Source: Candidatus Nomurabacteria bacterium (lineage in GTDB: Bacteria > Patescibacteriota > Minisyncoccia > Phycocordibacterales > UBA9973). Taken from it: a stretch of DNA of 57,766 nucleotides. The translations under genes were made by a program, and so were the position numbers. The stretch is taken from positions 1 to 57,766 of the forward strand of contig JAHFNO010000007.1 in NCBI GenBank assembly GCA_023267275.1, read 5' to 3'. The notes beneath the pieces are model-generated. The model was not told where the DNA came from and made no database searches. It saw only the letters and a program-made list of their open reading frames with translations. Shown here in pieces: positions 14,712 through 55,341 of the stretch (its first letter is position 1; the number at the start of each line of letters is the position of its first letter).

Positions 14712-16809
14712 ATTACAATCTGAATATAAGCCAGCCGGCGATCAGCCGAATGCTATCAAAGGCTTGGTAGAAGGTCTTGATCAGGGTTTGCGTAAGCAAA
14801 CCCTCTTGGGCGTGACTGGCTCTGGAAAGACATTCACCATGGCAAACGTTATTGCCGAGCACAACAAGCCCACACTCGTGATTGCCCACAACAAAACACT
14901 CGCCGCTCAACTCGCACAAGAATATCGAGAGTTTTTTCCCGATGCTGCCGTGCATTACTTTGTTTCTTATTACGACTTCTATCAACCAGAAGCATATTTG
15001 CCGACGAGCGATACCTATATTGAAAAAGATGCATCGATCAACGAAGAAATCGATCGTCTTCGTCATGCTTCGACACAGGCACTGCTCATTCGCCGTGATG
15101 TGATTATTGTTGCGTCGGTCTCATGTATTTACGGTTTGGGTTCACCAGAAGATTACAAGGAACAAAATCTGCAAATTTCTGTCGGAACAAAAATTCAAAA
15201 AATAGAATTGATGCGCAAGCTTATCGGCAATCATTTTGAACGTACCAATGCCGATGTGGGTAGTGCGCAGTTTCGCGCGGTCGGAAATCGTGTTGATGTC
15301 GTGCCAGTATCGGAGACATACATGTATCAGATATTTTTTGAAGGCGACACAATCTCTCGCATTGCAGTTGTAGATCCCGTATCATCAAAAATTCTTGAAG
15401 AAGTGCAAGATATTTTTCTTTTTCCAGCAAAGCACTTTATGACAAACGAGAGTCAGAAAGCAAAAGCCATTAAATCGATTCAAGCTGAACTCAAAACACA
15501 ACTCGCAAAATTTGAAAAAGAAGGAAAACTTCTTGAAGCACAACGTTTGAAACGCCGTACCACATACGATCTCGCCATGATTAAAGAGATTGGGTATTGT
15601 AACGGTATTGAAAACTACTCTCGGCATCTTTCAGGAAAGAAACCGGGTGAAGCGCCAGAAACATTGCTTTCCTATTTTCCGCACAAGGCCGATGGTACAC
15701 CAGACTTTTTGACAGTTATTGATGAATCGCACGTCACTGTGCCACAACTCGGCGGTATGTTTGCTGGTGATCAATCTCGAAAGAAAACACTTATTGAATT
15801 CGGTTTTCGGTTGCCATCTGCCGCTGACAACCGTCCGTTGAAATATCCAGAATTTGAAGAGCGAGTTGGGCAAGTGATTTACACTACGGCAACTCCATCA
15901 GAGTATGAACGCAAGGAAAGCGAAAAAATAGTTGAACAGATCATTCGTCCAACAGGACTCATCGATCCAGAAATAATTTTGCGTCCGATTTTAGAATCTA
16001 ACACCAAACACCAAACACCTAACACCACGAGTTATCCCGGGCAGATTCAGGACTTCATCGCTGAAACAGAAAAAACAATTGCGCGTGGTTTTCGCGTGAT
16101 CGCGACTACGCTCACAAAAAAAATGGCCGAGGATCTTTCTGTGTATTTGAAAGACAAAAAAATCAAAGCCGAATATTTGCATAGCGATATTAAAACCATC
16201 GAACGTATTCAGATTCTTACGCAGTTCCGTAGGGGAGAGTTCGATGTCATCGTGGGGGTCAACTTACTCCGCGAAGGTCTCGATCTTCCGGAAGTAGCAC
16301 TCATTGGAATTCTTGATGCGGACAAGGAAGGATTTTTGCGTTCTGAGACATCACTCATCCAGACAATCGGTCGTGCAGCCCGCAACTCGGAAGGACGAGT
16401 TATTCTTTATGCCGATAAACTCACCGGAAGTATGGAGCGAGCAATCGGCGAAACAAATCGTCGCCGCACTATCCAGCTCGAATATAACAAAAAGCACGGC
16501 ATTACTCCAAAAACTATCTTGAAACAAATCAAAGATATTACGGAGCAGATGGAGTCGCGTCATGCAAAAGCTGTAAACAGCGAGCTTGATCTTGATATTG
16601 AACTCTTTAAAAAGGGTGTTAAGGCTGGAAAAGTAGGGAAGAGTAAACTCTCAACGCTTTCAGATGAAGATCGCGATAAGGCAGTGTATGAAAAAATAAT
16701 TAAGATAAAGGAAAAAGAAATGAATCACGCAGTAAAAGAACTCGACTTTGAGACCGCAGCTATTTTGCGCGATGAGATAGTCGTACTGCGGGAGAGAATG
16801 ACAAAATAA
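14692..16809 (+). CDS. uvrB: excinuclease ABC subunit B
   Basis: LLGVTGSGKT, FVSYYDFYQPEAY, DESH, C-terminal LDFETAAILRD UVR domain; start 14683 or 14692. Confidence 0.98.
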   Translation: MEKKVFKLQSEYKPAGDQPNAIKGLVEGLDQGLRKQTLLGVTGSGKTFTMANVIAEHNKPTLVIAHNKTLAAQLAQEYREFFPDAAVHYFVSYYDFYQPEAYLPTSDTYIEKDASINEEIDRLRHASTQALLIRRDVIIVASVSCIYGLGSPEDYKEQNLQISVGTKIQKIELMRKLIGNHFERTNADVGSAQFRAVGNRVDVVPVSETYMYQIFFEGDTISRIAVVDPVSSKILEEVQDIFLFPAKHFMTNESQKAKAIKSIQAELKTQLAKFEKEGKLLEAQRLKRRTTYDLAMIKEIGYCNGIENYSRHLSGKKPGEAPETLLSYFPHKADGTPDFLTVIDESHVTVPQLGGMFAGDQSRKKTLIEFGFRLPSAADNRPLKYPEFEERVGQVIYTTATPSEYERKESEKIVEQIIRPTGLIDPEIILRPILESNTKHQTPNTTSYPGQIQDFIAETEKTIARGFRVIATTLTKKMAEDLSVYLKDKKIKAEYLHSDIKTIERIQILTQFRRGEFDVIVGVNLLREGLDLPEVALIGILDADKEGFLRSETSLIQTIGRAARNSEGRVILYADKLTGSMERAIGETNRRRTIQLEYNKKHGITPKTILKQIKDITEQMESRHAKAVNSELDLDIELFKKGVKAGKVGKSKLSTLSDEDRDKAVYEKIIKIKEKEMNHAVKELDFETAAILRDEIVVLRERMTK
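16000..16027. repeat. heptamer array in frame in uvrB
   Basis: aacacca aacacca aacacct aacacca, encoding NTKHQTPNT. Confidence 0.85.
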
Positions 16810-16848
16810 AAAAAGCCGTTTCCAAAAAATTGGGCGTACTTTTTATGT

Positions 16849-17193
16849 TTAAGGATAACAGTTCCAGAGTTCTCTTATTTGTGCCCCTAAAATTTTATTA
16901 GGGTGAACTCCAAAGCGCATTTCGTTTGGTGGGGAATCTTTTGTTACGTTTATACTATTTTCAGACCACTGTAATTCTATATATAGTGAATCACTGTCTG
17001 AATATTTATTTAACCAAACAAATCCAGATTTTGTTGAATAGTCAGAAAATAGGATTTCTAAATGTAATTGTTCTCCATACTTGATACGTATATCGCTTTT
17101 CTTGAAAAGTTCTAATGGTTTATCGGTATGGATTATCGTACAAAATTCTTTCCATGTTAAAAAACTAGACAAGCTGTTTTCTATATTTTTCAT
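16849..17193 (-). CDS. hypothetical protein (orphan)
   Basis: 114-aa AT-rich ORF; TTGACA-17-TAAAAT at 17240-17212 (minus strand). Confidence 0.65.
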   Translation of the reverse strand: MKNIENSLSSFLTWKEFCTIIHTDKPLELFKKSDIRIKYGEQLHLEILFSDYSTKSGFVWLNKYSDSDSLYIELQWSENSINVTKDSPPNEMRFGVHPNKILGAQIRELWNCYP

Positions 17194-17328
17194 AATAAAT
17201 TTCTTTTCTTTATTTTATATACAAATTAGTATTTTGTCAAATTTAAATTTTATGCTATAGTATGCCTAGTTAAATAGCGATACACACCCCCTAGGAGTCT
17301 TGGCGGGTGAAGTTTGCGTGAGGGTCGG

Positions 17329-17388
17329 GTCATCCTGAACTTGTTTCAGGATCCATAATACTAGATCCTGAAACAAGTTCAGGATGAC
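17329..17388. repeat. GTCATCCTGAA element, copy 2
   Basis: gtcatcctgaacttgtttcaggatcc-ataatacta-gatcctgaaacaagttcaggatgac. Confidence 0.9.
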
Positions 17389-17401
17389 ATTCAAAAATTT
17401 T

Positions 17402-20053
17402 ATGAAATGCGAAAAAGAAAACAATCAAAACTGGATTCGTGTGAAGGGTGCAAAGACCCACAATCTCAAAAATGTAGATGTGGAAATGCCTCGCGACAAA
17501 ATGGTCGCAATCACTGGAATGTCCGGATCAGGAAAATCGTCTCTCGCATTCGATACTATTTTTGCCGAGGGTCAGCGTCGCTATGTGGAATCACTTTCTT
17601 CATATGCACGACAATTCCTCCAGCAGATGCCAAAGCCAGATGTAGAAGAAATCACTGGGCTCTCTCCGGCAATCTCTATCGACCAAAAATCTCGCTCAAA
17701 CAATCCGCGCTCAACGGTTGCGACGATCACTGAAATCTACGACTATCTTCGTGTGTTGTATGCGCGTATCGGACGACCGTTTTCTCCAATCTCTGGTCTT
17801 GAAGTAAAAAAACTTTCTAATCAAGAAATTTCTGATTTCGTTTTGAAGAAAGTAAAAGAAGTTCTCAAAAATTCCTCCCACCACCCCGCCTCGAGTACGA
17901 GTCACCCCTCCTCGGGCAGGAGGGGAGGAAAACGTGCTGTGATGGGTGTTGAATGGAACGATGCGCCAATCGAAATCTATGCGCCAATGGTGCGTGGACG
18001 AAAAGGTGAATACTATCAGTTGCTCTACGATATGCTTTCAAAAGGATATGAAAAAGCGCGCATCGATGGCAAAGTGCACAATCTGCGCGATCGTATTGAG
18101 CTCTCAAAAACAGCCAAGCATGAAATCGATATTATGATCGATAGTTTTGCCGTACATGAATTTGCCGATCGTCCAGCCGATATGGAAATGCGTCTTGCTG
18201 AAGCTATCGAGCGAGCGATTCTTGAAAGCGATGGACTCATTCGCATTGTCACTCCGGAAGAAGACGCACTGCTCTCCGCAAAACTTATCTGTCCCGAAGA
18301 CGGCTATGTGTTTCCAGAAGTAGAACCACGACTCTTTTCTTTCAACTCTCCGTACGGCGCGTGTGCTGCATGTAATGGTCTTGGAACAAAACATTTCTTT
18401 GGTGATGAACCATGTGATACCTGTCACGGTGCGCGTTTGCGTGAAGAAGCACTCAATATTTTTCTTGGCGGAAAAGAACACGGAAAAAATGTTGTTGATT
18501 TTACCAAGATGACTGTCCGTGAAGCCGTAGACTTCATGGCGACAATCAAACTTACGCCAAAAGAAAAAGAAATCGGCGCAGGAATCTTGAAAGAAATTTC
18601 AGATCGATTGCAATTTATGCTCAACGTTGGTTTGGATTATCTTGGTCTTGATCGCCGTGCGAACACGCTCTCTGGCGGAGAATCGCAACGCATTCGTCTT
18701 GCTTCACAGCTCGGTTCGCGACTCGTCGGTGCCATGTATGTACTCGACGAGCCAACGATTGGTCTGCATCAACGCGACAATGACAAGCTCATTGCGACAC
18801 TGCTTGAACTTCGTGATTTGGGAAATACGATTATTGTGGTTGAACACGATGAAGATACTATTTATGCTTCTGACTATATTGTAGATATCGGTCCGGCTGC
18901 TGGCGTGCATGGTGGAAATATTATTGAATCCGGTTGGCTTGAAAAATTGCTCACCGCAAAAACAAATCCATCTGGATCTCGCACACTCGCATATTTGCGT
19001 GGTGAAGCAAAAATTGCCATTCCAGAAAAGCGTCGCGATTCCGACAAAGGCATGTTGCAAATTGTGGGCGCAAAGATACACAATATCGACAACATCAACG
19101 TCGATATTCCGCTCGGGCGTCTCGTCTGTGTGACAGGAGTTTCTGGTGCAGGGAAGTCGAGCTTTGTCGATGATGTGCTCGCGGCAAATCTTTCGGCTCA
19201 ATTTGATAAAAAATATCGTACAAACAAAATTTATAACTGTGCAAAATTCCTCGGTCGTGAATATCTCACTCGTGCAATTCTTATCGACCAGAGTCCTATT
19301 GGACGCACGCCACGTAGTAACATTGCTACCTACACTGGTGCATGGAGTCATATTCGCGATATGTTTGCCGAGACTGAAGAAGCACGACTTCGTGGATGGA
19401 AAGCAAATCGTTTTTCTTTCAACGTAAAAGGTGGACGCTGTGAAGCCTGTGAAGGTCGCGGCGTGATTGCTGTGGAGATGCATTTCTTACCGACAGTGTA
19501 CGTTATTTGTGATGTTTGTGACGGAAAGCGTTTCGACAAAGAAACACTGAAAGTAAAATACAAAAAGAAGAGCGTATATGATGTGCTTGAAATGACCGTG
19601 GAAGAAGCAAACGAATTTTTTCGCGATATTCCAGCTATCTCAGATCGACTGCAAACACTTGTGGATGTGGGACTTTCGTATATAAAAATCGGACAGAACG
19701 CGACAACGCTTTCCGGCGGAGAGGCGCAGCGCGTAAAAATCGCATCAGAACTTTACCGGCCGTTTATTCAAAAAGCGATGTATCTTCTCGACGAACCGAC
19801 AGTGGGATTGCATTATGATGATGTGGCAAATCTTATTGATGTGTTGCAGAAGCTTGTAAATCGCGGCAACAGTGTGGTGGTGATTGAACACAATCTTGAT
19901 CTCATAAAATGCGCCGACTACCTCATCGACTTCGGTCCAGAAGGGGGAGACAAGGGTGGAAAGGTTGTGGCAAAAGGAACCCCAGAAGAAGTGGCGAATA
20001 ATGCAAAATCACACACGGGATATTATTTAAAAAAAGTGCTGAAGAGGAAATAG
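17402..20053 (+). CDS. uvrA: excinuclease ABC subunit A
   Basis: Two ABC modules ([17 protein letters not shown]; [17 protein letters not shown]) and Zn fingers; ATG 17384 lies inside the repeat, so 17402 is preferred. Confidence 0.98.
17875..17926. repeat. 52-bp hairpin element in frame in uvrA
   Basis: ctcccaccaccccgcctcgagtacgagtcacccctcctcgggcaggagggga. Confidence 0.9.
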
Positions 20054-20064
20054 TATTTAATTAA

Positions 20065-20093
20065 AAACGGGAAAGGTCATACCTTTCCCGTTT
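20065..20093. terminator. bidirectional hairpin after uvrA
   Basis: aaacgggaaaggt-cat-acctttcccgttt. Confidence 0.75.
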
Positions 20094-20108
20094 GCACATT
20101 TGTTGCTT

Positions 20109-20435
20109 TTAACCGATAGCTTCAGCGATGCATTCAAGTAATTTATCTAAAGCATAGTGCTTTTGAATTTCCTTGTCGCGAGCTATGTCTTCATCATTTA
20201 CTGGATTTTTAAGATATTCTTTCTTAAAAATTATTTTGTGAGACACTTCTTTCCTTTGGATATCAGGTTTTGCTGCAATATCGCAAAATCTTTCATACTG
20301 CTCATTGGTGAGCTCTTTTGCAATTGTAGTATTTATGGCTTCTGATATTTCAATATTAGATCCATAGAAATATGAAAGTTGTGCACCGAGTGTTAATGCT
20401 TCAAGTATTTTTATGAGATTGAATTTTGTTTGTTT
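20109..20435 (-). pseudogene. start-less ~108-codon orphan reading frame
   Basis: Open frame ...IKILEALTLGAQLSYFYG...LLECIAEAIG*; nearest ATG (20442) is out of frame. Confidence 0.5.
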
Positions 20436-20453
20436 TTACCATATAGTATATCC

Positions 20454-21761
20454 GTGAAAAGTCAAGAATTAGCTAAAGCCAAATTGCCAGATGTACCCGG
20501 TGTATATTTCTTCCGAAAAGGGAAGGATATTTTGTATATTGGCAAAGCTACTTCGCTCCGTGATCGTACGAAGAGCTATTTTGCCAAGGATTTAATTGCA
20601 ACTCGTGGTCCACTCATCGTGGATATGGTGTTTAAGGCTGACACTGTGAAGTGGCAAGAGACAGACTCTGTACTCGAAGCGCTCATTCTTGAAGCCAATC
20701 TTATCAAGCAACATCAGCCGTACTACAATACAAAAGAAAAAGACGATAAGAGTTGGAACTATGTTGTGATAACTAAGGATGACCTCCCGAAAGTATTGGT
20801 TATACGAGGCAAGGATTTATTTTCCAAACACCAAACACCAAACACCAAAAACCATTCAGCTATCTTCGGTCCTTTTACAAGCGGACTACAGCTCAAAGAA
20901 GCGCTCAAGATTGTGCGCAAGATTTTTCCGTTTGTGGATGCGAGTTCAGCCAAGCGCGACAATTATGAATTTTATCGTCAATTAGGTTTAACTCCTGATT
21001 TGGGTTCGGGCGTCGGTGTCATCCCGGACTTGATCCGGGATCCACGAAAAATACGAATGGATTCCGGCTCGGAGGCCGGAATGACAAGGGCTATGGATGT
21101 GTACAAGAGAAATTTAAAAAACATCAAACTTTTTTTTGAAGGAAAGAAAAAAGATATTGTAAAAAATTTGAATGGGGAAATGAAGCTCGCGGCCAAGGCG
21201 TGCCGCTTTGAAGAAGCGGCGCGCCTGCGCAATCAGATTTTTGCGCTTGAGCATATCAATGACATAGCTTTGCTTAAGAATGACCTAGCACCAAACACCA
21301 AACACCAAAAACCAGGCTTCCGTATTGAAGCATATGACGTCGCACACATGAGTGGAAAAAACATGGTGGGTGTGATGACTGTGCTTGAGGATGGCGAAAT
21401 CAATAACAAAGAATATCGTTCATTCAATATCAAAGGATTTACTGATGCCAATGATACCGGCGCACTTGAAGAAATGCTCTCTCGGCGTTTTCGTCATGTT
21501 GAATGGGGAATGCCAGACCTCGTGGTAGCGGACGGTGGTGAAGCGCAACTGCGCGTGGCAAAACAAGTCTTGAAGCGATACCAACTCGAAATTCCTGTGG
21601 TGTCAGTAGTAAAAGACGAACGACACAAACCAAAAGATATTTTGGGAGATGAAGTCATGGCGAAAAAAATGAAAAAGGAAATCCTACTCGGCAACAGCGA
21701 GGCACACCGCTTTTCAATCAAATTGCATAAAAACAAACGCAACAAGAACTTTCTCAAGTAG
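20454..21761 (+). CDS. uvrC: excinuclease ABC subunit C (short; no C-terminal HhH)
   Basis: PGVY..LYIGKA GIY-YIG, FEEAARLRNQI UVR, RIEAYDVAH and PDLVVADGG RNase H-like domain; GTG start inferred. Confidence 0.93.
   Translation: MKSQELAKAKLPDVPGVYFFRKGKDILYIGKATSLRDRTKSYFAKDLIATRGPLIVDMVFKADTVKWQETDSVLEALILEANLIKQHQPYYNTKEKDDKSWNYVVITKDDLPKVLVIRGKDLFSKHQTPNTKNHSAIFGPFTSGLQLKEALKIVRKIFPFVDASSAKRDNYEFYRQLGLTPDLGSGVGVIPDLIRDPRKIRMDSGSEAGMTRAMDVYKRNLKNIKLFFEGKKKDIVKNLNGEMKLAAKACRFEEAARLRNQIFALEHINDIALLKNDLAPNTKHQKPGFRIEAYDVAHMSGKNMVGVMTVLEDGEINNKEYRSFNIKGFTDANDTGALEEMLSRRFRHVEWGMPDLVVADGGEAQLRVAKQVLKRYQLEIPVVSVVKDERHKPKDILGDEVMAKKMKKEILLGNSEAHRFSIKLHKNKRNKNFLK
20824..20854. repeat. heptamer array in frame in uvrC
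   Basis: ccaaaca x3, ccaaaaa, cca. Confidence 0.85.
21018..21085. repeat. GTCATCC-type element, copy 3, in frame in uvrC
   Basis: gtcatcccggacttgatccgggatcc...ggattccggctcggaggccggaatgac, encoding VIPDLIRDPRKIRMDSGSEAGMT. Confidence 0.9.
21284..21314. repeat. second heptamer array in frame in uvrC
   Basis: cctagca ccaaaca ccaaaca ccaaaaa cca. Confidence 0.85.
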
Positions 21762-44844: not shown

Positions 44845-44915
44845 CCTAATTGAGGAGAAAAAATCAAAATAAGCATTTCTCGCCCCATAGGAAGTGTAAT
44901 CACTTTCCTTCTGGG

Positions 44916-44954: not shown

Positions 44955-45028
44955 AATCCTATACATAAATAAATATATGTGGTAATGTGCGAGTGATAAA
45001 ACTATTGTGTACCTTAAAATTTGATCTA

Positions 45029-45529: not shown

Positions 45530-45582
45530 TTTTACCCGCGACACATTTTGTGTTGCGGGTATTTTTTTGTTACTATGCCTGC

Positions 45583-46167: not shown

Positions 46168-46176
46168 ACAAAGGTT

Positions 46177-46259
46177 GGGTCATCCTGAACTTGTTTCAGG
46201 ATCTATATAAATCAAAATACAGTACAAACCTGGATCCTGAAACAAGTTCAGGATGACCC
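46177..46259. repeat. GTCATCCTGAA element, copy 4
   Basis: gggtcatcctgaacttgtttcaggatc...ggatcctgaaacaagttcaggatgaccc. Confidence 0.9.
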
Positions 46260-46270
46260 GGGAATAAAGG

Positions 46271-46771
46271 TTACTTTTGATTTCGACGCTTCATCTCGCT
46301 AATCTCTTCACCCAAAGCCTTCAGTGAATGTTCGATGCGTTCGAGCACTTCACGCTCAATAATTTCTTCTTTTGTTTCTTTTTCATCGTCCTCCTGGATG
46401 TCTTCCACATCTTCTTGAATCTCGTCGACATCTTCCTGAATTTCATCAATGTCTTCCTGGATTTCTTCCACATCTTCCTGGATTTCCTCCACGTCTTCTG
46501 ACACTTCCTCAAGTTGTTTTGCCTGGCGATTGACGCTCATTTGAATAAATATTGAAAGATAGATTGCTTCGAGCGAAACTATTGTGGTAAGCACGAGCAA
46601 AATGGTATTGAACGGCACTCCAAAAAAATACAAAAGAAACGAAACAATAAACATCGCCGTGTGAAATACGAGAGAACCAGTGGAGCCGATTGAACGCGTT
46701 GCTCGCATGGAAACATATTCAAGAAGTGATTCGTTTGTGAGTCGAGGGTTGCGATTTTTTCGAGCTATCAT
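46271..46771 (-). CDS. DUF1003-like membrane protein with acidic heptad coiled coil
   Basis: IGS...LTTIVSLEAIYLSIFIQMSVNRQ, then EDVEEIQ-type repeats. Confidence 0.8.
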   Translation of the reverse strand: MIARKNRNPRLTNESLLEYVSMRATRSIGSTGSLVFHTAMFIVSFLLYFFGVPFNTILLVLTTIVSLEAIYLSIFIQMSVNRQAKQLEEVSEDVEEIQEDVEEIQEDIDEIQEDVDEIQEDVEDIQEDDEKETKEEIIEREVLERIEHSLKALGEEISEMKRRNQK

Positions 46772-46842
46772 AGAAATTTTGAGTTTTGCATAAGCGTGCC
46801 CTTACGATTGAAAATTAAGCCTTTTTATTATACTATGGGTTC

Positions 46843-47397
46843 ATGGATACTCAAACAACAAAAGGTTCAAAATTTACTAAATGGGCGATGATTATTGCAA
46901 TCGTTGTTGTTCTCAATTTGTTTTTCAATTATGCGATCTCTCTCGTATATAAAGCACCTGCCTACGAAGATTTTATAAAACCAACACAGGTAGTTGAGCC
47001 GATCACTACAAAAGATGATTGTTTGAAAGTGGGTGGTCAGTGGACCGATCCAGATACTCGCTACGAAAATATTCCAACTCCTGGAATGAAAAGTGCACCA
47101 GCTGTTGGGTATTGTGATCCAAATTACACGAAGCAAATGGAATTCAATACAGCTACAAAAAATTATAGCCGCACAGTATTTATTATTCTTGTGATACTCG
47201 GCGTAATTTCACTCGGACTTTCTGCTCTGTTTACCAATGCAATACTTTCGCCTGCATTTTCTTGGGGTGGGGTACTTTCCTTGATCATTGCATCAATGCG
47301 CTACTGGAGTGACGCAGACAATTTTGTAAAAGTACTTATTCTTGGAGTTGCTCTCGGTGCACTCATCTGGCTCGCGGTTAAAAAATTCCAAAATTAA
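46843..47397 (+). CDS. hypothetical multi-pass membrane protein
   Basis: TM, Cys-containing loop (CLKVGGQW, GYCD), then three TM segments. Confidence 0.8.
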   Translation: MDTQTTKGSKFTKWAMIIAIVVVLNLFFNYAISLVYKAPAYEDFIKPTQVVEPITTKDDCLKVGGQWTDPDTRYENIPTPGMKSAPAVGYCDPNYTKQMEFNTATKNYSRTVFIILVILGVISLGLSALFTNAILSPAFSWGGVLSLIIASMRYWSDADNFVKVLILGVALGALIWLAVKKFQN

Positions 47398-47399
47398 AC

Positions 47400-47430
47400 T
47401 AGTCGTTAGTCTTTAGTCTACAGTCTTTAG
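47400..47430. repeat. left heptamer arm of four-helix-bundle cassette
   Basis: tagtcgt tagtctt tagtcta cagtctt tag. Confidence 0.9.
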
Positions 47431-47432
47431 AA

Positions 47433-47801
47433 ATGCCAGAACAAACAAAAATAAACTCATTTAAAGACTTGATTGTTTGGCAAAAAAGCTTCCAGCTTGT
47501 TAGGCAGATATATAAAATAACTGAAAAAATACCATCTACCGAAATGTATGGATTGAAATCTCAGATGCAGAGGTCATCAGTTTCTATTCCTTCAAACATT
47601 GCAGAGGGGTTTTACCGAAGAACACCAAAAGATTTTAAACAATTTTTACATATAGCATTTGGTTCAACCGCTGAACTTGAGACACAGTTGCTGTTGTGTA
47701 AAGAGCTGTATTCGATTAATATCGAAGAAGAAGGAAAATTGCTTACAGAAGTTAGTAAAATGCTCAGAGTATTTATTACTAAACTAGAGACTAAAGACTA
47801 A
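47433..47801 (+). CDS. four helix bundle protein (23S rRNA IVP / TIGR02436-like)
   Basis: SFKDLIVWQKS...EMYGLKSQMQRSSVSIPSNIAEG..R...F..IAFGSTAELETQL. Confidence 0.95.
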   Translation: MPEQTKINSFKDLIVWQKSFQLVRQIYKITEKIPSTEMYGLKSQMQRSSVSIPSNIAEGFYRRTPKDFKQFLHIAFGSTAELETQLLLCKELYSINIEEEGKLLTEVSKMLRVFITKLETKD

Positions 47802-47817
47802 GCACTATAAACTATGA
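47783..47817. repeat. right heptamer arm; contains the cassette stop codon and the leuS ATG
   Basis: actagag actaaag actaagc actataa actatga. Confidence 0.9.
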
Positions 47818-50800
47818 ATAATTACGATCATACGAAAATAGAAAAAAAATGGCAGAAGGAATGGGATACAAAAAAAACCTACGCAACTGCATCCTCTAAA
47901 AAAGCGAAAGGTAAAAAACCTTTTTATGTACTTGATATGTTTCCGTATCCATCTGGTGCAGGTCTTCATGTAGGTCATCCTCGCGGGTATATTGGTAGTG
48001 ATGTGATTGCGCGAAAAATGCGTATGGAGGGATACAATGTATTGCATCCAATGGGTTATGACGCTTTTGGTCTGCCTGCAGAACAATACGCAATCCAAAA
48101 CAATATTCATCCGCGCAAAGCTGTAGAACAAAATGTAAAAACATTTGAGCACCAGCTTTCTATCCTTGGTCTCTCATATGACTGGTCACGAAAAATAAAT
48201 ACAACTGATCCAGAGTATTACAAATGGACACAATGGATTTTTGAAAAAATATATGAATCCTGGTTTGATACTGAGAAAAATTCTGCACGACCAATAGCCG
48301 AACTTGTTGCACTATTTGAAAAGCGTGGCAACGTCGGTATTTCTGCGTGTTCATCAAATACTCAATTGTTTTCTGCAAAGGAGTGGCTGCTGATGAGCGA
48401 GATGGAAAAGCAAAATACACTCATGCAGTATCGCCTCGCATATGAAGGATATTCAGAGGTGAATTGGTGTCCTGAACTCGGCACGGTGCTCGCCAACGAC
48501 GAAATCGTTGATGGTCCAAATGGTCCAGTATCAGAACGTGGCGGATATCCTGTAGAAAAGAAAACAATGCGCCAATGGTTTATGCGTATTACTGCATATG
48601 CGGATCGACTTATTTCTGGTCTCGACAATCTCGACTGGCCAAGCCACATCAAAGAAATTCAAAAAAATTGGATCGGAAAAAGTGAAGGAGCAGAAATCGA
48701 GTTTAAAGTTGAAAGTGTAAAGTCGAAAGTCGGTACAATCAAGGTATTTACGACACGAGCGGATACTCTATTTGGTGTGACGTATGTTGTGCTCGCGCCA
48801 GAACATCCATTAATCTCAAATCTCAAATCTCAAATCTCAAATCTGACTGAAGTTGAACAATACCTTGCAGAAGCAAAAAAGAAAGACGACATTATTCGTG
48901 CATCTACCGACAAGGAAAAGAGTGGTGTTGAGCTGAAAGGCATTCGCGCAATCAATCCGGCAAACGGCGAAGAGGTGCCAGTATGGGTAGCAGATTATGT
49001 GTTGCCACAATATGGCACGGGAGCAGTAATGGCCGTACCTGCGCACGACGAACGAGATTTTGCATTTGCGAAGAAATATAATTTGCCGATGAAGCAGGTT
49101 GTTAAGCCTGTGTTTATTGATCCTATAAATCCACCACGATTCGGACTTAGTGAAGTTGTTCGTAATACTGTTTATATTTTTTTAAAAAACAAACAAACAG
49201 GTTTATACGCATTATTGCGCTGGCATGGAACTCTTGAAGGTATTACTACTGTGGTAATGGGCGGACAAGAAGAAGGAGAGACTCGCGAAGAGGCTTGTCT
49301 TAAAGAAATTAAGGAAGAAACTGGTTTAGTGAATGCTTGTTTTGTAAAAGAAATGCCATGGGTATCAGATGCCAAATATTGTGCTTCGCATAAAAATCAA
49401 AATCGGTTATCTATTTCATATGCATATTTATATGAAATTGATTCACTTGATGGGCAAATATTAGTTTCAGAAGAAGAAAAAAAGTTAGCTACACTTTATT
49501 GGGGTACAGCAGAAGAATTAGCTAAAAAAGTTCCTGAGCATCAAAAATATTTATGGGCACAGTTGTGTGTAGTGTCTCCAGTTTTAAACGATGGTTTATT
49601 AATGAATTCTGGAAAATTTGACGGACTGTCATCAGAAGAAGCTCGAGAAAAAATCACTCAATCCGTCGGAGGAAGAATTGTTACGAAGTTTAAACTTCGC
49701 GATGCTATTTTTGCACGTCAGCGATATTGGGGCGAGCCGATTCCACTTTTTACCAAGGATGGAATTATTCACGAAGTCGCAGAGAAAAAATTACCACTCG
49801 AACTACCGAATGTAAAAAGTTATGAGCCGACTGGCACCGGAGAGAGCCCACTTGCCGGAGTTGCTTCATGGGTAAAAGCTGGATACGAGACAAATACAAT
49901 GCCGGGTTGGGCGGGAAGTTCTTGGTATTTCTTGCGCTATGCCGATCCAAAAAATAAAAAAGCTTTTGCCGATAAAAATGAACTCGATTATTGGTTCGAC
50001 AAAAAGAATCAGGGAGGAGTAGATGTGTATGTGGGTGGAGCGGAACATTCTACCGGACACTTGCTCTATTCGCGTTTTTGGCATCAATTTCTTTTTGATA
50101 TGGGATTTGTTCCAACACCAGAACCATTTCAAATGCTTCGAAATCAAGGAATGATTTTGGCTTCCGATGGACGCAAAATGTCAAAGCGATGGGGAAATGT
50201 AATCAATCCTGACGATATTGTAAAAACGTATGGAGCAGACACGCTTCGTTTGTATGAAATGTTTATTGGACCATTTGATTCGAGTTTGCCATGGCAGACC
50301 GATAGTATTATCGGTCCACGACGTTTTATTGAACGTGTTTGGAAAATGGGGGCGCGTGTCCTCGAAACAAAATCAAAAACTACAAGCGCTGATGCAGAGC
50401 GTGCAATTCATTTTGCTATCAAAAAAGTAAGTGAAGATATTGCAAGCTTTGGTTTCAACACGGCAGTGTCTGCAATGATGATTTGTTTGAATGAAATGGA
50501 AAAAGGGGAAACCATCTCGATAGCTGATTTCAAAAAGTTTTTGCAATTGCTTGCACCGTTTGCGCCATATGTTTCTGAAGAACTCTGGCACGAAATCTCG
50601 AATCTTGAATCTCGAAACTCAAATCTTCAGATACAAGATACAAGAAATGAGATACAAGTTTCAAGCATTCATCTTTCTGGTTGGCCAATGTTTGATCCCG
50701 CAAAACTTGTTTCAGATACTATGACAATAGTTGTTTCGGTAAACGGTAAACCACGCGAACATCTTACTGTTGCTCGAACCGCTACGCAAAAGGATATTGA

Positions 50801-50903
50801 GGACATGGCACGTCAATCAGAAAAGGTGCAAACATTTTTGCAGGGAGTAGAACCAAAGCGGGTGATTTATGTACCAGAGAAATTAATTAATTTTGTGCTG
50901 TAA
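47814..50903 (+). CDS. leuS: leucine--tRNA ligase with inserted NUDIX domain
   Basis: MFPYPSGAGLHVGH, CP1 FTTRADT/GTGAVMAVPAHDERD, RQRYWGEPIP, KMSKR. Confidence 0.98.
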   Translation: MNNYDHTKIEKKWQKEWDTKKTYATASSKKAKGKKPFYVLDMFPYPSGAGLHVGHPRGYIGSDVIARKMRMEGYNVLHPMGYDAFGLPAEQYAIQNNIHPRKAVEQNVKTFEHQLSILGLSYDWSRKINTTDPEYYKWTQWIFEKIYESWFDTEKNSARPIAELVALFEKRGNVGISACSSNTQLFSAKEWLLMSEMEKQNTLMQYRLAYEGYSEVNWCPELGTVLANDEIVDGPNGPVSERGGYPVEKKTMRQWFMRITAYADRLISGLDNLDWPSHIKEIQKNWIGKSEGAEIEFKVESVKSKVGTIKVFTTRADTLFGVTYVVLAPEHPLISNLKSQISNLTEVEQYLAEAKKKDDIIRASTDKEKSGVELKGIRAINPANGEEVPVWVADYVLPQYGTGAVMAVPAHDERDFAFAKKYNLPMKQVVKPVFIDPINPPRFGLSEVVRNTVYIFLKNKQTGLYALLRWHGTLEGITTVVMGGQEEGETREEACLKEIKEETGLVNACFVKEMPWVSDAKYCASHKNQNRLSISYAYLYEIDSLDGQILVSEEEKKLATLYWGTAEELAKKVPEHQKYLWAQLCVVSPVLNDGLLMNSGKFDGLSSEEAREKITQSVGGRIVTKFKLRDAIFARQRYWGEPIPLFTKDGIIHEVAEKKLPLELPNVKSYEPTGTGESPLAGVASWVKAGYETNTMPGWAGSSWYFLRYADPKNKKAFADKNELDYWFDKKNQGGVDVYVGGAEHSTGHLLYSRFWHQFLFDMGFVPTPEPFQMLRNQGMILASDGRKMSKRWGNVINPDDIVKTYGADTLRLYEMFIGPFDSSLPWQTDSIIGPRRFIERVWKMGARVLETKSKTTSADAERAIHFAIKKVSEDIASFGFNTAVSAMMICLNEMEKGETISIADFKKFLQLLAPFAPYVSEELWHEISNLESRNSNLQIQDTRNEIQVSSIHLSGWPMFDPAKLVSDTMTIVVSVNGKPREHLTVARTATQKDIEDMARQSEKVQTFLQGVEPKRVIYVPEKLINFVL
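48704..48731. repeat. heptamer array in frame in leuS
   Basis: taaagtt gaaagtg taaagtc gaaagtc, encoding KVESVKSKV. Confidence 0.75.
48812..48846. repeat. heptamer array in frame in leuS
   Basis: aatctca x4 plus aatctga, encoding ISNLKSQISNL. Confidence 0.9.
50594..50665. repeat. inverted heptamer arm pair in frame in leuS
   Basis: aatctcg aatcttg aatctcg aaactca aatcttc | agataca agataca agaaatg agataca agtttca ag. Confidence 0.85.
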
Positions 50904-50910
50904 TGAATTT

Positions 50911-50984
50911 GTCATTCCCGGCTCCGACCGGGAATCCAGTCTAATTTAATTCAAACCTGGATCCTGAATCAAGTTCAGGATGAC
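50911..50984. repeat. GTCAT-type element, copy 5 (hybrid arms)
   Basis: gtcattcccggctccgaccgggaatcc...ggatcctgaatcaagttcaggatgac. Confidence 0.9.
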
Positions 50985-50996
50985 ACAACCCAAAAA

Positions 50997-52673
50997 ATGA
51001 TACGTAAATTACTCAGATTAATAAACCGAAGAGAAGACGAAGGTGGTATGCATCAAGCAGCCATTCTTCTTGGTGTTTTTTCATTGATTTCTCAGCTCAT
51101 TGGTCTCTGGCGTGATCGAATGCTCGCACATACTATTGGCCCTGGACCATTGCTTGATGTGTATTATTCTGCATTTCGTATTCCGGATTTTATTTATCTC
51201 TCCATTGCCTCACTTGCTTCCATTACAGTACTCATGCCGTTTTTGATTGATCACATGAATAGCAACGGCAAGGATTCTGCGCGGAAATTTTTCAACGACG
51301 TGCTCTCCGGATTTTTTCTTTTGCTCACACTCGTTTCGATAGCCGTATATTTTATGATGCCACGCTTGGCTCAGTATATTGCGCCAGGATTTTCTACTCT
51401 GCAATTGCACGAGCTTGTGGGTGTGAGTCGCATTATGTTGCTCTCTCCGATTTTTATGGGTCTCTCCAACATGATTGGAACTGTCACTCAGCTCATGCGC
51501 AAGTTTGTTGTGTTTTCTTTGTCTCCCATTTTTTACAATCTGGGAATTGTATTCGGTATTCTCTTTTTGTATCCGAAATACGGCGTGTATGGTCTTGCGA
51601 TCGGTGTGGCACTTGGAGCATTGATGCATTTGCTCATCCAAATTCCTACAATAGTCAAAGCTGGATTTACTCCGAAGCTTGCAGCTCGTCTTGAACATGC
51701 AACGCTTCGCCAAGTTGTCTCGCTTTCACTTCCACGCACACTTGGTCTTTCGATGAATAGCATTGCACTTATCGTGATTCTTGCGATGGCATCCAAACTT
51801 TCTTCTGGGTCAATTTCTATTTTCAACTTTTCGTACAACCTTGAAACCACGCCGGTCGGTATCATTGGAATATCGTATGCCGTTGCATCGTTTCCACTTC
51901 TATCAGAAGCATTTGCACGAGGGGACATGGATAAATGGCAGAAGAGTATTATTTCTGCATTGCGACAAATTATTTTTTGGTCGCTACCACTTTCCGCACT
52001 TTTTATTGTGGTACGTGCGCAGATTGTACGCGTGACACTCGGCTCCGGCGCATTTTCTTGGAATGATACCAAGCTTACCGCAGCAGCATTTGCATTGTTT
52101 ACACTCGGCCTCATTGCACAAAATATGATTCTCGTTTCGGTGCGCGCATTTTATGCAGCACACAATACAAAGACCCCGCTCATCATCAATGCTTTTTGTT
52201 CTATCGTCATTGTGGCACTCGCATATTTTCTTCTCCATGCATTTGAAACTGTTCCAATGTTCCGCTACTTCATTGAGTCGCTACTTCGTGTACCAGACAT
52301 ACCACAGACTGCCGTACTCATGCTTCCACTCGCATACTCAATCGGTACATTGCTCAACGCATGGCTCCATTGGGTGGATTTGCGACGACAATATCTCACA
52401 TCAGTCGGTAGCTTGCCTCGCACATTGTTTGAAGCAGTCGCAGCGTCATTTGCGGTTGGAATTACTGCATACGCCTCGCTCAATGCACTTTCCTATGTGT
52501 TTAGTATGAATACATTTTTTGGAGTGCTTATGCAGGGAGGCATCGCCTGTATTTTGGGAACACTTGCTGGTCTTATTTTGCTCTATCTTTTGAAGAGTGA
52601 ATCATTGTTTGAAATATTGAATGCTGCTCGCAAAAAATTCTGGAAAGTGGATTTTGTAGAACCAGAAAAATAA
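50997..52673 (+). CDS. murJ: lipid II flippase MurJ (MviN)
   Basis: SQLIGLWRDRMLA, YYSAFRIPD, PIFYN, RAFYA..NTKTP; many TM helices. Confidence 0.92.
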   Translation: MIRKLLRLINRREDEGGMHQAAILLGVFSLISQLIGLWRDRMLAHTIGPGPLLDVYYSAFRIPDFIYLSIASLASITVLMPFLIDHMNSNGKDSARKFFNDVLSGFFLLLTLVSIAVYFMMPRLAQYIAPGFSTLQLHELVGVSRIMLLSPIFMGLSNMIGTVTQLMRKFVVFSLSPIFYNLGIVFGILFLYPKYGVYGLAIGVALGALMHLLIQIPTIVKAGFTPKLAARLEHATLRQVVSLSLPRTLGLSMNSIALIVILAMASKLSSGSISIFNFSYNLETTPVGIIGISYAVASFPLLSEAFARGDMDKWQKSIISALRQIIFWSLPLSALFIVVRAQIVRVTLGSGAFSWNDTKLTAAAFALFTLGLIAQNMILVSVRAFYAAHNTKTPLIINAFCSIVIVALAYFLLHAFETVPMFRYFIESLLRVPDIPQTAVLMLPLAYSIGTLLNAWLHWVDLRRQYLTSVGSLPRTLFEAVAASFAVGITAYASLNALSYVFSMNTFFGVLMQGGIACILGTLAGLILLYLLKSESLFEILNAARKKFWKVDFVEPEK

Positions 52674-52761
52674 GAACACAGCTTTCTGGTTTTTGGTTTT
52701 AGTTTGAAATAAAAAAGACCTCTGTTTTAAAGAGATCTTTCGTTCTTAAGCGATTATGAAA

Positions 52762-53379
52762 TTACATTTTATTCACATAAACTAATGCACGATTATTCCA
52801 ACTGAATGTATCACCCCCATTCATTTTTGAAATTGTTTTTGTACCGGTTGTAATTTTGCCATTTTCTTTTGACAACCATCTTACGTATTTACCTGCGTTA
52901 TCTTCATATATGGTTCCCCAAAATATTATATATACAAGTTTAGATACTACTCCTGAGGGTTCACTAAACCAGCAATCTTGTATTAAGTGGGGATAAGCCA
53001 GAAGATAATCCAAAAATGTCGCGTTTGCAGTTGGTTCATCTTTTAATGCTTCCATCAAGTCGATACCATAGGAAAACTTATTTTCATTCTGCACTCTTGT
53101 TACATAAGTATCAAAATCTTCCGGATGAAAAATTACATCTCCAAAGTGATTATGGCTCACTATTTTGGAACCATTTTCACAAAAAGGGGTTTCATGGGTT
53201 GGGATTAAGTGCATAATTTTTTCAGTTTGTTCAATGAATCTGATAATTTTCATTGCCAGTTCATTGTTTTTTGAATCAATCACTTTTTGTAGGTGCATAT
53301 ACATGCCACCAGCTTTTTCAAATTTTTTGGCGAACTCAAGCCACTGACCGAGTCCTTTGCTCACATCATCTTTTTTCAT
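52762..53379 (-). CDS. hypothetical protein (orphan)
   Basis: 205-aa AT-rich ORF with promoter-like TTGCAT-16-TATAAT upstream and hairpin downstream. Confidence 0.7.
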   Translation of the reverse strand: MKKDDVSKGLGQWLEFAKKFEKAGGMYMHLQKVIDSKNNELAMKIIRFIEQTEKIMHLIPTHETPFCENGSKIVSHNHFGDVIFHPEDFDTYVTRVQNENKFSYGIDLMEALKDEPTANATFLDYLLAYPHLIQDCWFSEPSGVVSKLVYIIFWGTIYEDNAGKYVRWLSKENGKITTGTKTISKMNGGDTFSWNNRALVYVNKM

Positions 53380-53511
53380 GACGCATACAGTATTAAATTG
53401 TTAGGGAACCAATATTAGTTCTCGATTCGTATTATACAACTAATTATTAAAAATGCAAGCGAAAATAATGCTTTATAAAACAAGCATTTTCTGCTAGGAT
53501 GGCAGTATCTT

Positions 53512-55341
53512 ATGGATTTAAAGCATATTCGAAACTTTAGTATTATCGCGCATATCGACCACGGCAAGTCTACGCTTGCCGATAGAATGCTTGAGGTTAC
53601 GGGCACGATCGAGGCACGTAAAATGCGTGACCAAGTGCTCGACAACATGGAACTCGAACGTGAACGTGGTATTACGATCAAAATGCAACCCGTCAGAATG
53701 GAATACCATTCTGACGGGAGTCAAAAGTCAAAAGTCGAAAGTGGAAAGTATCAACTCAATCTGATAGACACGCCAGGGCACATAGATTTTTCTTACGAGG
53801 TCTCAAGAGCTCTGAAGGCCGTAGAAGGTTCTATTTTGCTTGTAGACTCCACACAGGGCGTGCAAGCACAAACACTCACCACACTCGAAGCAGCGCGTGC
53901 AGAAGGGCTCATTATTGTGCCAGCTGTTTCAAAAATCGATTCTCCGCTTGCTCGACCAGAAGAAGTAAAATTGGAAATTGCGACGTTGCTCGATATCGAT
54001 CCCGATATGATTCTTTCTGTTTCCGGAAAAACAGGTGAAGGTGTTGCCGAACTTTTGCAGGCCGTGATCGAACGCATTCCTCCACCAGCCATGGCAAAGG
54101 AACCAGGACTCAAAGCACTTGTGTTTGATTTTAAATATGACGATCATCGCGGAGTTATTGTGTACGTTCGTATTTTTGAAGGAAGCGTGAGAAAAAATGA
54201 TCGACTGCTTTTTTCGATTGCGAAAGAAAAATTCATTGCACTTGAAGTGGGCATTTTTACTCCGGGAGAAGAAGCACGTGATTCGTTGAATGCTGGAGAG
54301 ATTGGCTACATTGTGACTGGCGTCAAACAACCAGGTATCGCTTCTGTGGGAGACACTATCACTACTGAAAAAAATCCGTTGCCACCACTTCCTGGATATG
54401 CAAATCCACGACCAGTGGTATGGGCATCTATTTATCCTGAAAGTCAGGACGATTTTCCAACACTCAAAATGGCACTTAGTCGTTTAAAACTTTCGGACTC
54501 AGCCTTTACGTTTGAAGAAGAATCTTCTGGTGCACTCGGTCGCGGATTCCGTGCCGGCTTTCTTGGAATGCTTCATCTTGAAATCATTACCGAACGTTTG
54601 CGTCGTGAATATCGACTCGAACTTATTGTGACTACACCATCGATTACATACATGGTGACAAAAAGAAATGGCGGAGTTGAAACAATTTATTCTCCACATT
54701 TGTTTCCCGATGATAGTCAGATTATTTCTGTAGAAGAACCATGGGCAAGCATGCATATCATTACGCCAGAGCGATATATAGGAGTACTCATGCCGTTTTT
54801 ATATGAACATGAAGGGGAAGTCGGCACAACTGAATCATTCGGTGAAGGACGTTCTTCTATTTCCGTGATGATGCCTCTTCGCGAAATGATGCGTGGATTT
54901 TTTGATGAACTTAAAAGTATTACGAGTGGTTATGCTTCTATCACTTACACTATTGCCGGACTTCGCCCTGCGTCAGTGACTCGTCTAGATATTGTGATTG
55001 CCGATGAAGTGGTACCTGCGTTTACACGTGTGATTGCTCGTCGTCGTGCGCAAGAAGAAGCCGATGAAGCGACAGAAAAATTGCAAAAGGTGCTGCCTCG
55101 CCAACAATTTGAAATGAAAGTGCAAGGTGTGGCGCTCGGAAAAATTCTTTCGTCAAAAACGATCAAAGCATTTCGAAAGGACGTGCTCATGCATGGAAGT
55201 AAAATGGTGGGAGGTGGTGACGTGTCTCGAAAAAAGAAACTTTTGGAAAAACAGAAAAAAGGAAAGGCACGCATGCGCAATTCCGGAAAAGTGAATATTC
55301 CACACGATGTGTTTCTGAAGATGATGCAGAGAGGGGAATAG
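53512..55341 (+). CDS. lepA: elongation factor 4
   Basis: IRNFSIIAHIDHGKSTLADR, DTPGH, GFLGMLHLEI, KKKLLEKQKKGK. Confidence 0.98.
   Translation: MDLKHIRNFSIIAHIDHGKSTLADRMLEVTGTIEARKMRDQVLDNMELERERGITIKMQPVRMEYHSDGSQKSKVESGKYQLNLIDTPGHIDFSYEVSRALKAVEGSILLVDSTQGVQAQTLTTLEAARAEGLIIVPAVSKIDSPLARPEEVKLEIATLLDIDPDMILSVSGKTGEGVAELLQAVIERIPPPAMAKEPGLKALVFDFKYDDHRGVIVYVRIFEGSVRKNDRLLFSIAKEKFIALEVGIFTPGEEARDSLNAGEIGYIVTGVKQPGIASVGDTITTEKNPLPPLPGYANPRPVVWASIYPESQDDFPTLKMALSRLKLSDSAFTFEEESSGALGRGFRAGFLGMLHLEIITERLRREYRLELIVTTPSITYMVTKRNGGVETIYSPHLFPDDSQIISVEEPWASMHIITPERYIGVLMPFLYEHEGEVGTTESFGEGRSSISVMMPLREMMRGFFDELKSITSGYASITYTIAGLRPASVTRLDIVIADEVVPAFTRVIARRRAQEEADEATEKLQKVLPRQQFEMKVQGVALGKILSSKTIKAFRKDVLMHGSKMVGGGDVSRKKKLLEKQKKGKARMRNSGKVNIPHDVFLKMMQRGE
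53719..53749. repeat. heptamer array in frame in lepA
   Basis: agtcaaa agtcaaa agtcgaa agtggaa agt, encoding SQKSKVESGK. Confidence 0.8.

Follow-up and report, generated by a model that had tools for sequence, protein, structure and literature searches.

The window analysed here, 57,766 nucleotides of contig JAHFNO010000007.1 from a Candidatus Nomurabacteria bacterium (assembly GCA_023267275.1), raises the question of why tandem arrays of 7-bp units (heptamers) are read in frame within the genes for UvrB, UvrC, leucyl-tRNA synthetase (LeuRS) and LepA. A preliminary description of this DNA had offered two answers, namely footprints of one element family tolerated in loops, or potential contingency loci in DNA-repair genes. 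Here we report that the array units belong to a genome-wide family, in keeping with the first answer, and that the same unit families build the arms of hairpin cassettes around PF05635 genes and of an insertion in 23S rRNA. In our view the in-frame arrays are probably strays from the arms of this intervening-sequence (IVS)-type, PF05635-linked hairpin-cassette family, stable and without a phase switch. The source genome (G000), that of an ultra-small groundwater bacterium of the Paceibacteria, comprises 1.02 Mb in 33 contigs at 40.6% GC; its contigs are given C numbers, the genomes of relatives other G numbers and the loci of relatives L numbers. Arrays were called with Tandem Repeats Finder (TRF) at period 7, and host genes were named by Pfam.

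All in-frame arrays of the window lie on the plus strand. UvrB (14683-16809) carries an AACACCA-type array at 16000-16027 (4.0 copies, 90% matches), encoding the peptide NTKHQTPNT. Two arrays of the same type lie in UvrC (20430-21761), one at 20824-20854 in the variable loop after the GIY-YIG domain (4.4 copies, 95%) and one at 21289-21314 in the linker before the RNase H-like domain (3.7 copies, 94%). LeuRS (47814-50903) holds an AAAGT+NN array at 48704-48732, in a loop where the editing domain begins (TRF 48700-48732, 4.0-4.4 copies, 79-80%), a perfect AATCTCA array at 48812-48846 that encodes ISNLKSQISNL (TRF 48812-48844, 4.7 copies, 100%) and, near its C-terminus, a double array at 50594-50658 in which AATCTCG-type units (50594-50626) are followed by AGATACA-type units (50629-50658). 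LepA (53512-55341) has an AAAGT+NN-type array at 53719-53749 (4.4 copies, 91%), encoding SQKSKVES. The four open reading frames (ORFs) are all open and were aligned end to end with solved homologues. Six of these arrays had been named in the preliminary description; each was found in frame, at or within 5 bp of the coordinates it gave, and its peptides are correct, while its start for the second UvrC array (21284) moves to 21289 and the LeuRS double array had been overlooked. It had also rightly likened the ccaaaca/aacacca unit of the coding arrays to that of an intergenic array at 1746-1773 (plus strand), which is AACACCA-type and ends 8 nt before the start codon at 1781.

Genome-wide, TRF returned 262 period-7 rows, where three order-3 Markov simulations averaged 27.3, and 66 period-14 rows, where the simulations gave 5. 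Array length peaks at 30-33 bp (108 of 262 rows), with the same peak for intergenic arrays, and copy number at 4-5 (126 rows; mode 4-4.7), only 13 rows exceeding five copies. When arrays of at least 3 copies were reduced to a non-overlapping set and compared with crude ORF calls (1057 ORFs), 207 arrays were obtained, 121 intergenic, 54 in ORFs and 32 at ORF edges. The family is therefore mainly intergenic, as 153 of the 207 are intergenic or at ORF edges although ORFs make up 86% of the genome, and 64 of 153 distances to the adjacent start codon are below 10 bp. There are 60 canonical units, some of which recur often: AAACACC alone accounts for 15 arrays, and exact-core runs of at least 3 units number 36 for AAAGT+NN and 27 for GCCTA+NN. 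Units have 4-5 contiguous constant positions and two variable ones; where an array has exactly two variable columns, these are adjacent in 71 of 106 cases (one third expected), and perfect arrays make up only 10 of 178 indel-free ones. Adenine mutagenesis in the style of diversity-generating retroelements (DGRs) was considered as the source of the two variable positions and rejected, since the constant cores AAAGT and GCCTA hold invariant A's.

We show that these units have a cassette architecture. Among neighbouring array pairs no more than 500 bp apart (n=46), 15 are inverted-like, 3 direct-like, 1 both and 27 neither. Inverted pairs fold as arms of about 30 bp, in some cases around a GC-rich hairpin that resembles a terminator. 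The genome has at least 15 hairpins with heptamer arms but no gene. Two lie in the window, one at 7106-7179 (arms AATTAAG and ATTCCTA, from TRF and folding), whose arm pair has 5 copies in the genome, and one at 11012-11107 (TRF arms AGTCTAT and ACTAAAG; RNA fold -35.5 kcal/mol). Directly upstream of LeuRS, on the plus strand, a gene of the 23S_rRNA_IVP family (PF05635; 47433-47801; Pfam E 7.8e-37, 126 bits, cut-off 33.8), predicted to encode an Avd-like four-helix bundle, is flanked by a left arm of TAGTCTT units (47400-47430), the reverse complement of the right arm, and a right arm of AGACTAA units (47783-47814; periodicity 16/21), which abuts the LeuRS start codon. PF05635 has been described as an uncharacterised protein in rRNA insertions of Candidate Phyla Radiation (CPR) bacteria (according to bioRxiv 10.1101/2024.02.27.582315) and is likened to the DGR accessory protein Avd in PMC10053308.

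The ten PF05635 hits in the source genome correspond to eight loci: the assembly divides one gene between the end of C23 and the start of C22, so that it is hit twice, and a broken gene on C21 likewise yields two hits. With a periodicity threshold of at least 15/21 on each flank, arrays border both sides of four of the seven hits for which both flanks are available, and each of the two contig-end hits has an array on its available flank. The cassette arms are AACACCA-type at C27:5894, GCCTA+NN at C31:17749, TAGTCTT at 47400 and, in the cassette divided between C23 (end) and C22 (start), AATCTTG and AAGATAC; the arm types are the major unit families of the genome. Relatives show the same arrangement, with arms on both flanks of 7 of 12 PF05635 genes (5 of 6 in G013, 1 of 5 in G008 and 1 of 1 in G015), and their arms include AACACCA-, ACAGTAT-, AGGTTCT- and AATTAGG-types. 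Duplex energy of 130-nt gene flanks was tried as a cassette marker and abandoned, control small genes giving similar values (median -36 kcal/mol).

Usual positions for IVSs in 23S rRNA are helices 25 and 45. On C11, a partial 23S rRNA placed by Rfam alignment contains a gene-less insertion at large-subunit (LSU) model position ~583, both arms of which are AAAGT+NN arrays, and this is also the unit family of the LeuRS 48704 and LepA arrays. That the genome-wide family should build cassette arms, rRNA insertion arms and coding arrays favours the footprint reading. The likeness to a 23S IVS lies in the inverted-arm stem around a PF05635 gene and in the arm-only insertion in 23S rRNA; here, however, most cassettes stand between protein genes, the arms are tandem heptamers, and blocks occur also singly and in frame. 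At C11:28141-30103 (L232), where the 23S gene is cut by the contig end, there is a second insertion of ~120 nt near model position ~283.

A further connection comes from the LeuRS double array, which recurs with the same boundaries in IleRS (C22:62363-62427). Because this module has the arm pair of the cassette at the C23 end and C22 start, it is a cassette that lacks the gene. Single arrays are direct repeats of 27-33 bp, and only the LeuRS/IleRS module (~65 bp) is palindromic, a feature that recalls Rickettsia palindromic elements (RPEs). RPEs are likewise dispersed, MITE-like repeats found in frame in unrelated metabolic genes at fold-compatible positions, as described in PMC10969869, but they are ~150 bp long with a conserved peptide, whereas the blocks reported here span 27-65 bp, are 7-bp periodic and mostly non-palindromic when single, and in some cases replace sequence without a change in length.

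To place each array in its protein, loop location was taken from sequence alignment to solved homologues, and the arrays fall in loops or linkers of these, as the footprint reading would have it. The UvrB array is a clean 27-bp (+9 amino acids) insertion, present among five congeners only in G013 and lying inside a 15-residue insertion relative to solved UvrB (9gy7_E); the empty site of the other four congeners contains no such unit. The LepA array adds 8 residues relative to four congeners and 7 relative to 5imq_B, and the LepA loop of G013 has different heptamer arrays that add 22. The LeuRS double array, unique to the source genome, adds 17 residues relative to 17 orthologues and 19 relative to 1h3n_A (Thermus LeuRS). 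Aligned in this way, UvrB, LepA and the LeuRS C-terminus contain true insertions in loops.

Smaller changes are seen elsewhere. The LeuRS array at 48704 adds 3 residues relative to both relatives and 1h3n_A, and other heptamer arrays occupy this site in G025, G008 and G021. UvrC array 1, which adds 8 residues relative to G015, sits in a length-variable loop that the solved UvrC domains do not include; this site holds the same unit in G013 and another in G021. UvrC array 2 directly precedes the RNase H-like domain (the solved UvrC endonuclease domain begins at residues 296-298) and adds only 2 residues relative to relatives, G013 again having the same unit and G008 another. The array at LeuRS 48812 causes no length change relative to 15 of 16 orthologues and adds one residue relative to 1h3n_A, and distant orthologues have LIDKLKPQIENW or LIQDLKDKISNF in ungapped alignment with its peptide LISNLKSQISNL; the array recurs in G006 and, decayed, in G013 (16/21), and G025 carries a different unit. 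The suggestion that alignment with orthologues would reveal the peptides as insertions thus holds at five of the seven sites, and at the other two, LeuRS 48812 and UvrC array 2, the arrays overlay resident sequence.

Two further features of UvrC were noted. Its arrays are directly repeated at a distance of exactly 465 bp (155 codons), and a recombination event that joined them would remove the UVR region without breaking the frame. Residues 194-222 (~21009-21095) correspond to a GC-rich double-hairpin element that is read in frame and common to G013 only; G013 and G015 encode similar peptides at several further places, and other in-frame insertions near the UvrC N-terminus are present in relatives L002, L009, L014 and L016.

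Across orthologues, heptamer arrays were found (source genome included) in 3 of 20 aligned rows at each of the two UvrC sites, in 4 of 18 at LeuRS 48704, in 3 of 18 at LeuRS 48812 with G013 in addition at 16/21, and in 1 of 18 at the LeuRS C-terminal site; heptamer periodicity in random segments is 29 in 3000. Outside the coding arrays and the LepA loop, a different unit also stands at the G013 places orthologous to 31117, 55427 and 11012. Position tends to follow the gene, while unit identity tends to follow the genome.

A heptamer array runs through all three reading frames, so any stop triplet within the unit is fatal to the host gene, and the coding arrays bear the mark of this filter. Their unit is stop-free in the sense orientation in 47 of 54 cases, while in 77 of 121 intergenic arrays neither orientation is free of stops, and all 10 coding AAACACC arrays are sense-oriented. 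The sense strands are A-rich and G-poor (A 716, C 356, T 336, G 176). Arrays were found in 36 host ORFs, 25 of them named; 31 lie outside the window, and the 20 of these that were sampled encode NifS/IscS, GatA, LigA, a pilin-like protein, RNase HI, CysRS, XerC/D, PNPase, YifB, ValRS, TsaD, TrmD, RNase R, PheT, MurD, an rRNA methyltransferase, ArgRS, MnmA, a RecD2-like helicase and the CCA enzyme. With IleRS and the window genes UvrB, UvrC, LeuRS and LepA, which complete the named set, the hosts are mainly translation and RNA enzymes, many of them essential, and are not confined to repair genes.

Array density varies widely among relatives. Sampled DNA of 19 genomes gave, in arrays per kb, 0.46 for G013, 0.23 for G008, 0.20 for the source genome and 0.175 for G021, which belongs to another family; then 0.087 for G002, 0.074 for G004, 0.073 for G006, 0.062 for G025, 0.049 for G015, 0.047 for G003, 0.033 for G027, 0.017 each for G019, G023 and G009, 0.013 for G001 and 0 for G007, G028, G011 and G010. 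The four array-richest genomes have 10, 8, 6 and 8 PF05635 hits above the cut-off and the others 0-3, such that the four genomes with at least 6 copies span 0.175-0.46 arrays per kb and the other 15 all lie lower. The Spearman correlation between PF05635 count and array density is 0.87 (n=19, kin genomes). It is 0.75 after arrays adjacent to PF05635 genes are dropped, a removal that matters for G002 and G004 because their contigs were chosen for PF05635 genes.

Two other candidate drivers were rejected. GC content does not correlate with density (rho -0.27, p 0.26 in the 19 genomes; no correlation in 80 loci), and counts of reverse transcriptase (RVT_1) do not track it: G010 has 3 hits, G012 3 and G015 2, and all four array-rich genomes have at least 1, while no array occurs in the 34 kb sampled from G010 or in 4 kb of loci from G012. 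The 80 UvrB loci, from other Paceibacteria (599 kb), yielded 11 arrays in 9 loci; the UvrB array itself is common to L055 only, which may be the G013 genome.

We next consider how the arrays evolve. The closest relative found is G013, with 93% amino acid identity in UvrB and differences at 602 of 1109 four-fold degenerate sites (54%). Three arrays are common to the two genomes, in UvrB and twice in UvrC; their unit number is identical, and no length variation between close relatives was seen at them. These shared arrays differ at 5 of 87 bases, as against 22.1% in the rest of the genes (binomial p 3e-5), and at 1 of 29 third codon positions, as against 35% in two-fold boxes (p 6e-5), and 4 of the 5 changes are non-synonymous. 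Low divergence, few third-position changes and a mostly non-synonymous spectrum together indicate that change follows the heptamer register rather than the codon register. Homogenisation that is merely neutral cannot make two species diverge less, which leaves selection, or a conserved source sequence, as what would act on the units.

Unit number was also compared in three runs (X1-X3) of one groundwater study, taken as Logan contigs and aligned to 38000-57766 at a depth of ~6-8 in X1 and ~3 in X2. No ±7-bp indel was found inside any array covered by these contigs in that region, and the contigs span the arrays at 47400, 47783, 50594-50658, 53719, 55427 and 55584 with no gaps. Contigs break at 48812, since the array there is common to many foreign contigs. 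In X2 and X3 the AATCTCA array is contained in, or forms the end of, dozens of unrelated metagenome contigs, from which it follows that the unit occurs in other organisms of the groundwater community.

Based on these observations, we propose the following model. The blocks, ~30 bp long with a period of 7, would have as their native context the inverted arms of IVS-type hairpin cassettes, in which they flank Avd-like 23S_rRNA_IVP genes, form the 23S rRNA insertion and make up many gene-less hairpins. Single arms would land in loop- or linker-coding DNA of housekeeping enzymes, either inserted or overwriting what was there, and LeuRS and IleRS would each have received a complete arm pair lacking the gene. 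The survivors would be those whose units are stop-free in any phase, sense-oriented and coding for hydrophilic peptides; they would be translated as roughly 7-19 extra loop residues, with a stable unit number and no phase-variation switching. The data above establish the family membership of the arrays, the cassette architecture, the location in loops, the stop-free filter, the stability and the conservation of nucleotides in the heptamer register. We infer that the blocks spread as copies of other arrays or cassettes and not through local slippage, because units recur, the two-arm module is shared between two genes, the empty UvrB site lacks a seed, and coding length changes (+27, +24, +24, +9, +6, 0 and ~+51 bp) are never +21 bp. 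A force at the DNA or RNA level probably keeps each unit family uniform, be it selection for arm function or re-copying from a conserved source.

Several findings weigh against this proposal. No target-site duplication, conserved ends or recombinase was identified that would point to a mobility mechanism, and the length-neutral arrays (LeuRS 48812 at 0 residues, UvrC array 2 at +2) are not simple insertions; the proposal does not account for these two sites or for the fixed size of 4-5 units. The cassette association is incomplete, since of the seven fully flanked PF05635 hits in the source genome one has a single clear arm and two have none, and 5 of the 12 PF05635 genes in G013, G008 and G015 fall below the array threshold. 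The correlation with PF05635 overstates the support, because the genomes are related to one another and the four array-rich ones stand for about two independent lineages; moreover, the sampled contigs of G002, G004 and G006 were picked for carrying PF05635 genes, G025 reaches 0.062 arrays per kb, two of its arrays lying in LeuRS, without a PF05635 hit above the cut-off, and G027 has 3 PF05635 genes at only 0.033 arrays per kb. At least 4 of the 54 arrays counted as coding (ACAGTAT-type) lie upstream of true starts in over-extended crude ORF calls. Finally, the contigs used to assess unit number drop rare variants at depths of ~3-8, so low-frequency variants in unit number may have gone unseen, and they were compared over 38000-57766, downstream of the UvrB and UvrC arrays (16000-21314).

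The strongest competitor holds that these are ordinary heptanucleotide microsatellites, produced by a lineage-specific slippage bias and kept in permissive loops, with cassette arms as one more place where they occur; we regard this as possible, though clearly less probable than stray cassette arms. An excess of heptanucleotide simple sequence repeats (SSRs) has been recorded in many bacteria, with polymerase slippage proposed as the cause (Mrazek et al. 2007, as cited in PMC4692102), and the examples given in PMC4692102 include GGGAATC in Xanthomonas, GGGGA(T/C)T in Nostoc and the heptamers among the short tandemly repeated repetitive (STRR) sequences of Calothrix. As in our genome, those are over-represented 7-bp tandem units, mainly intergenic and with inverted pairs able to form stem-loops; that source treats their function as unknown and speaks of "extensive length variation" in Xanthomonas. 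The sharp differences in density among congeners, which are mutator-like, also fit slippage, as do the somewhat unit-like flanks of some arrays (GAAATC before the LeuRS C-terminal array, and a local AGAAAT-like stretch) and the length-neutral arrays, which are compatible with homogenisation in place.

Several points weigh against slippage. The length distribution peaks at 4.3-4.7 units with a sharp upper bound, not a monotonic decay; the same units stand at many unrelated sites, and a two-arm module stands in two genes; the absence of +21 bp changes and the seedless UvrB site are as difficult for it as they are consistent with copying; which unit is present depends on the genome rather than the site; and a neutral process cannot keep array divergence at 6% when four-fold sites have reached 54%. 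Compared with the published SSR and STRR repeats, the arrays described here further stand apart in their narrow size of ~4.4 units, their many unit families with a constant 5-nt core, their stable unit number, the reading of about one quarter of them through housekeeping genes, and their link to PF05635 cassettes.

A less probable explanation, which we consider unlikely, is that the arrays are functional cis-elements in heptad register, serving as sites for an oligomeric protein (omega/ParB-like) or a pentameric Avd-like IVP, or as signals at the RNA level. Nucleotide-level conservation in the heptamer register, a constant core of 4-5 positions with two variable and usually adjacent ones, and the many arrays that abut start codons are what such elements would show. 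The narrow copy number of 4-5 units is also reminiscent of plasmid pSM19035, where the omega (ParB) system binds parS sites made of contiguous 7-bp heptads, direct or inverted, of which at least 4 are needed according to PMC9499535. Against this stand the ~60 different units, which would demand many readers, and the sister genomes that tolerate a different unit at the same site. Close relatives without arrays altogether imply, in addition, that the coding copies are dispensable. Omega sites have a 5+2 unit layout. In the source genome there is no Omega_Repress (PF07764) hit, although control genomes also gave 0 and this search is therefore uninformative, and a single RHH_1 (PF01402) hit falls below the cut-off. 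With ~200 sites and ~60 units here, coding ones included, and no omega-type and essentially no RHH_1 protein found, the pSM19035 heptads can serve only as a working analogy.

A bolder version, which we advance as speculation and consider unlikely, combines cis-sites with cassettes: the heptad blocks would be cis-sites of an undescribed PF05635-centred cassette system that writes or rewrites blocks of ~31 bp (4-5 heptads) at fixed places in the genome. If true, this writing would amount to templated sequence replacement rather than insertion, coding loops included. It would explain the length-neutral arrays, the nucleotide uniformity of each family across species, and why the unit follows the genome while the position follows the gene.

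That the arrays are contingency loci, in which gain or loss of 7 bp would switch UvrB, UvrC and other genes and create transient mutator states, now seems very improbable. The unit is not a multiple of three, so a single-unit change shifts the frame, and heptanucleotide phase-variable repeats exist in Haemophilus; with contingency loci of the Haemophilus influenzae type the arrays share just such a unit in or beside genes. They differ in being short interrupted tracts of only ~4 units, with no long perfect slippage-prone stretch, and in showing no unit-number change, either relative to G013 or as ±7 indels at the arrays covered by X1-X3 contigs, in which rare variants are dropped. All host ORFs of the window are intact, and a frameshift would be lethal or costly in LeuRS, IleRS, ValRS, LepA, LigA and others. 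Hosts such as CysRS, ArgRS, PheT, TsaD and TrmD are moreover not of the loss-tolerant kind (surface proteins, restriction-modification). The idea of contingency loci in DNA-repair genes is thus not borne out, the arrays being imperfect and stable and their hosts mostly concerned with translation and tRNA, many of them essential.

Just as improbable is that these are ordinary conserved linkers with incidental 7-bp periodicity: the preliminary description had tied that outcome to conserved peptides with decayed periodicity, and only LeuRS 48812 approaches it, its peptide aligning without gaps to distant orthologues (+1 residue relative to Thermus), but there the periodicity is perfect (21/21) and an unrelated heptamer unit stands at the site in G025, while at five of seven sites the insertions are absent from close relatives, which refutes this reading there.

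Our literature search, from which most subscription journals were out of reach, returned no paper on in-frame heptamer arrays of Patescibacteria or on heptamer arms of PF05635 cassettes. The heptanucleotide excess, without an explanation since 2007 (as cited in PMC4692102), can here be tied to the arms of IVS-type cassettes with an Avd-like gene. Heptamer arrays evolve in a 7-base register even within essential genes, and far more slowly than neutral sites. For annotation and modelling, loop insertions of 7-19 residues in aminoacyl-tRNA synthetases, UvrB, UvrC and LepA are best treated as repeat passengers, and in Patescibacteria they should not be read as lineage-specific functional motifs or as signs of phase-variable repair genes. 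The cassette link also provides testable handles, namely binding of heptads by the PF05635 protein, cutting of arms by RNase III and the appearance of arrays as whole blocks.

Other arrays of the window are intergenic. Solitary ones lie at 6984-7015 (CTAGGTG/CTAGGTT), where G013 has an orthologous array with a shifted unit, and at 31117-31147 (ATTCTTA/ATTCCTA), where a CTAGACC array occupies the orthologous place in G013. Two more follow LepA within 55427-55613 (TTGTTCC, then AGGTTCT); the orthologous places in G013 both hold arrays, of which one has an identical unit and the other does not. Elsewhere in the genome, ACAGTAT-type 33-mers occur 6-12 nt upstream of start codons, four of them identical (the set includes C10:4439-4471, C2:14098-14130, C32:1475-1507 and C6:18874-18906). 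They resemble promoters or operators, or may be arms that stand alone; in G013 and G008, PF05635 cassettes have arms built of the ACAGTAT unit (L165, L166).

LeuRS shows additional variation in its domain structure. Residues 450-578 (49161-49547) constitute a NUDIX domain inserted after the editing domain (Pfam E 1.2e-8) and present in some relatives only. The LeuRS of L042 (G015), L032 (G010) and L031 (G012) matches only residues 1-292 and 624-1029 of the query; there the whole editing (CP1) domain is missing from an open frame of 677-711 amino acids. The LeuRS gene of the source genome (47814-50903) looks mosaic relative to L023/L041 and L022/L027, its N-terminal part, with a 150-205 insertion, resembling one congener type, and its editing domain being nearer to the G006/G013 type, otherwise only 55% identical. 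At 46392-46498, an array of 21-bp period (5.1 copies) inside the minus-strand ORF 46271-46771 is a 7-residue protein repeat and not a heptamer DNA array.

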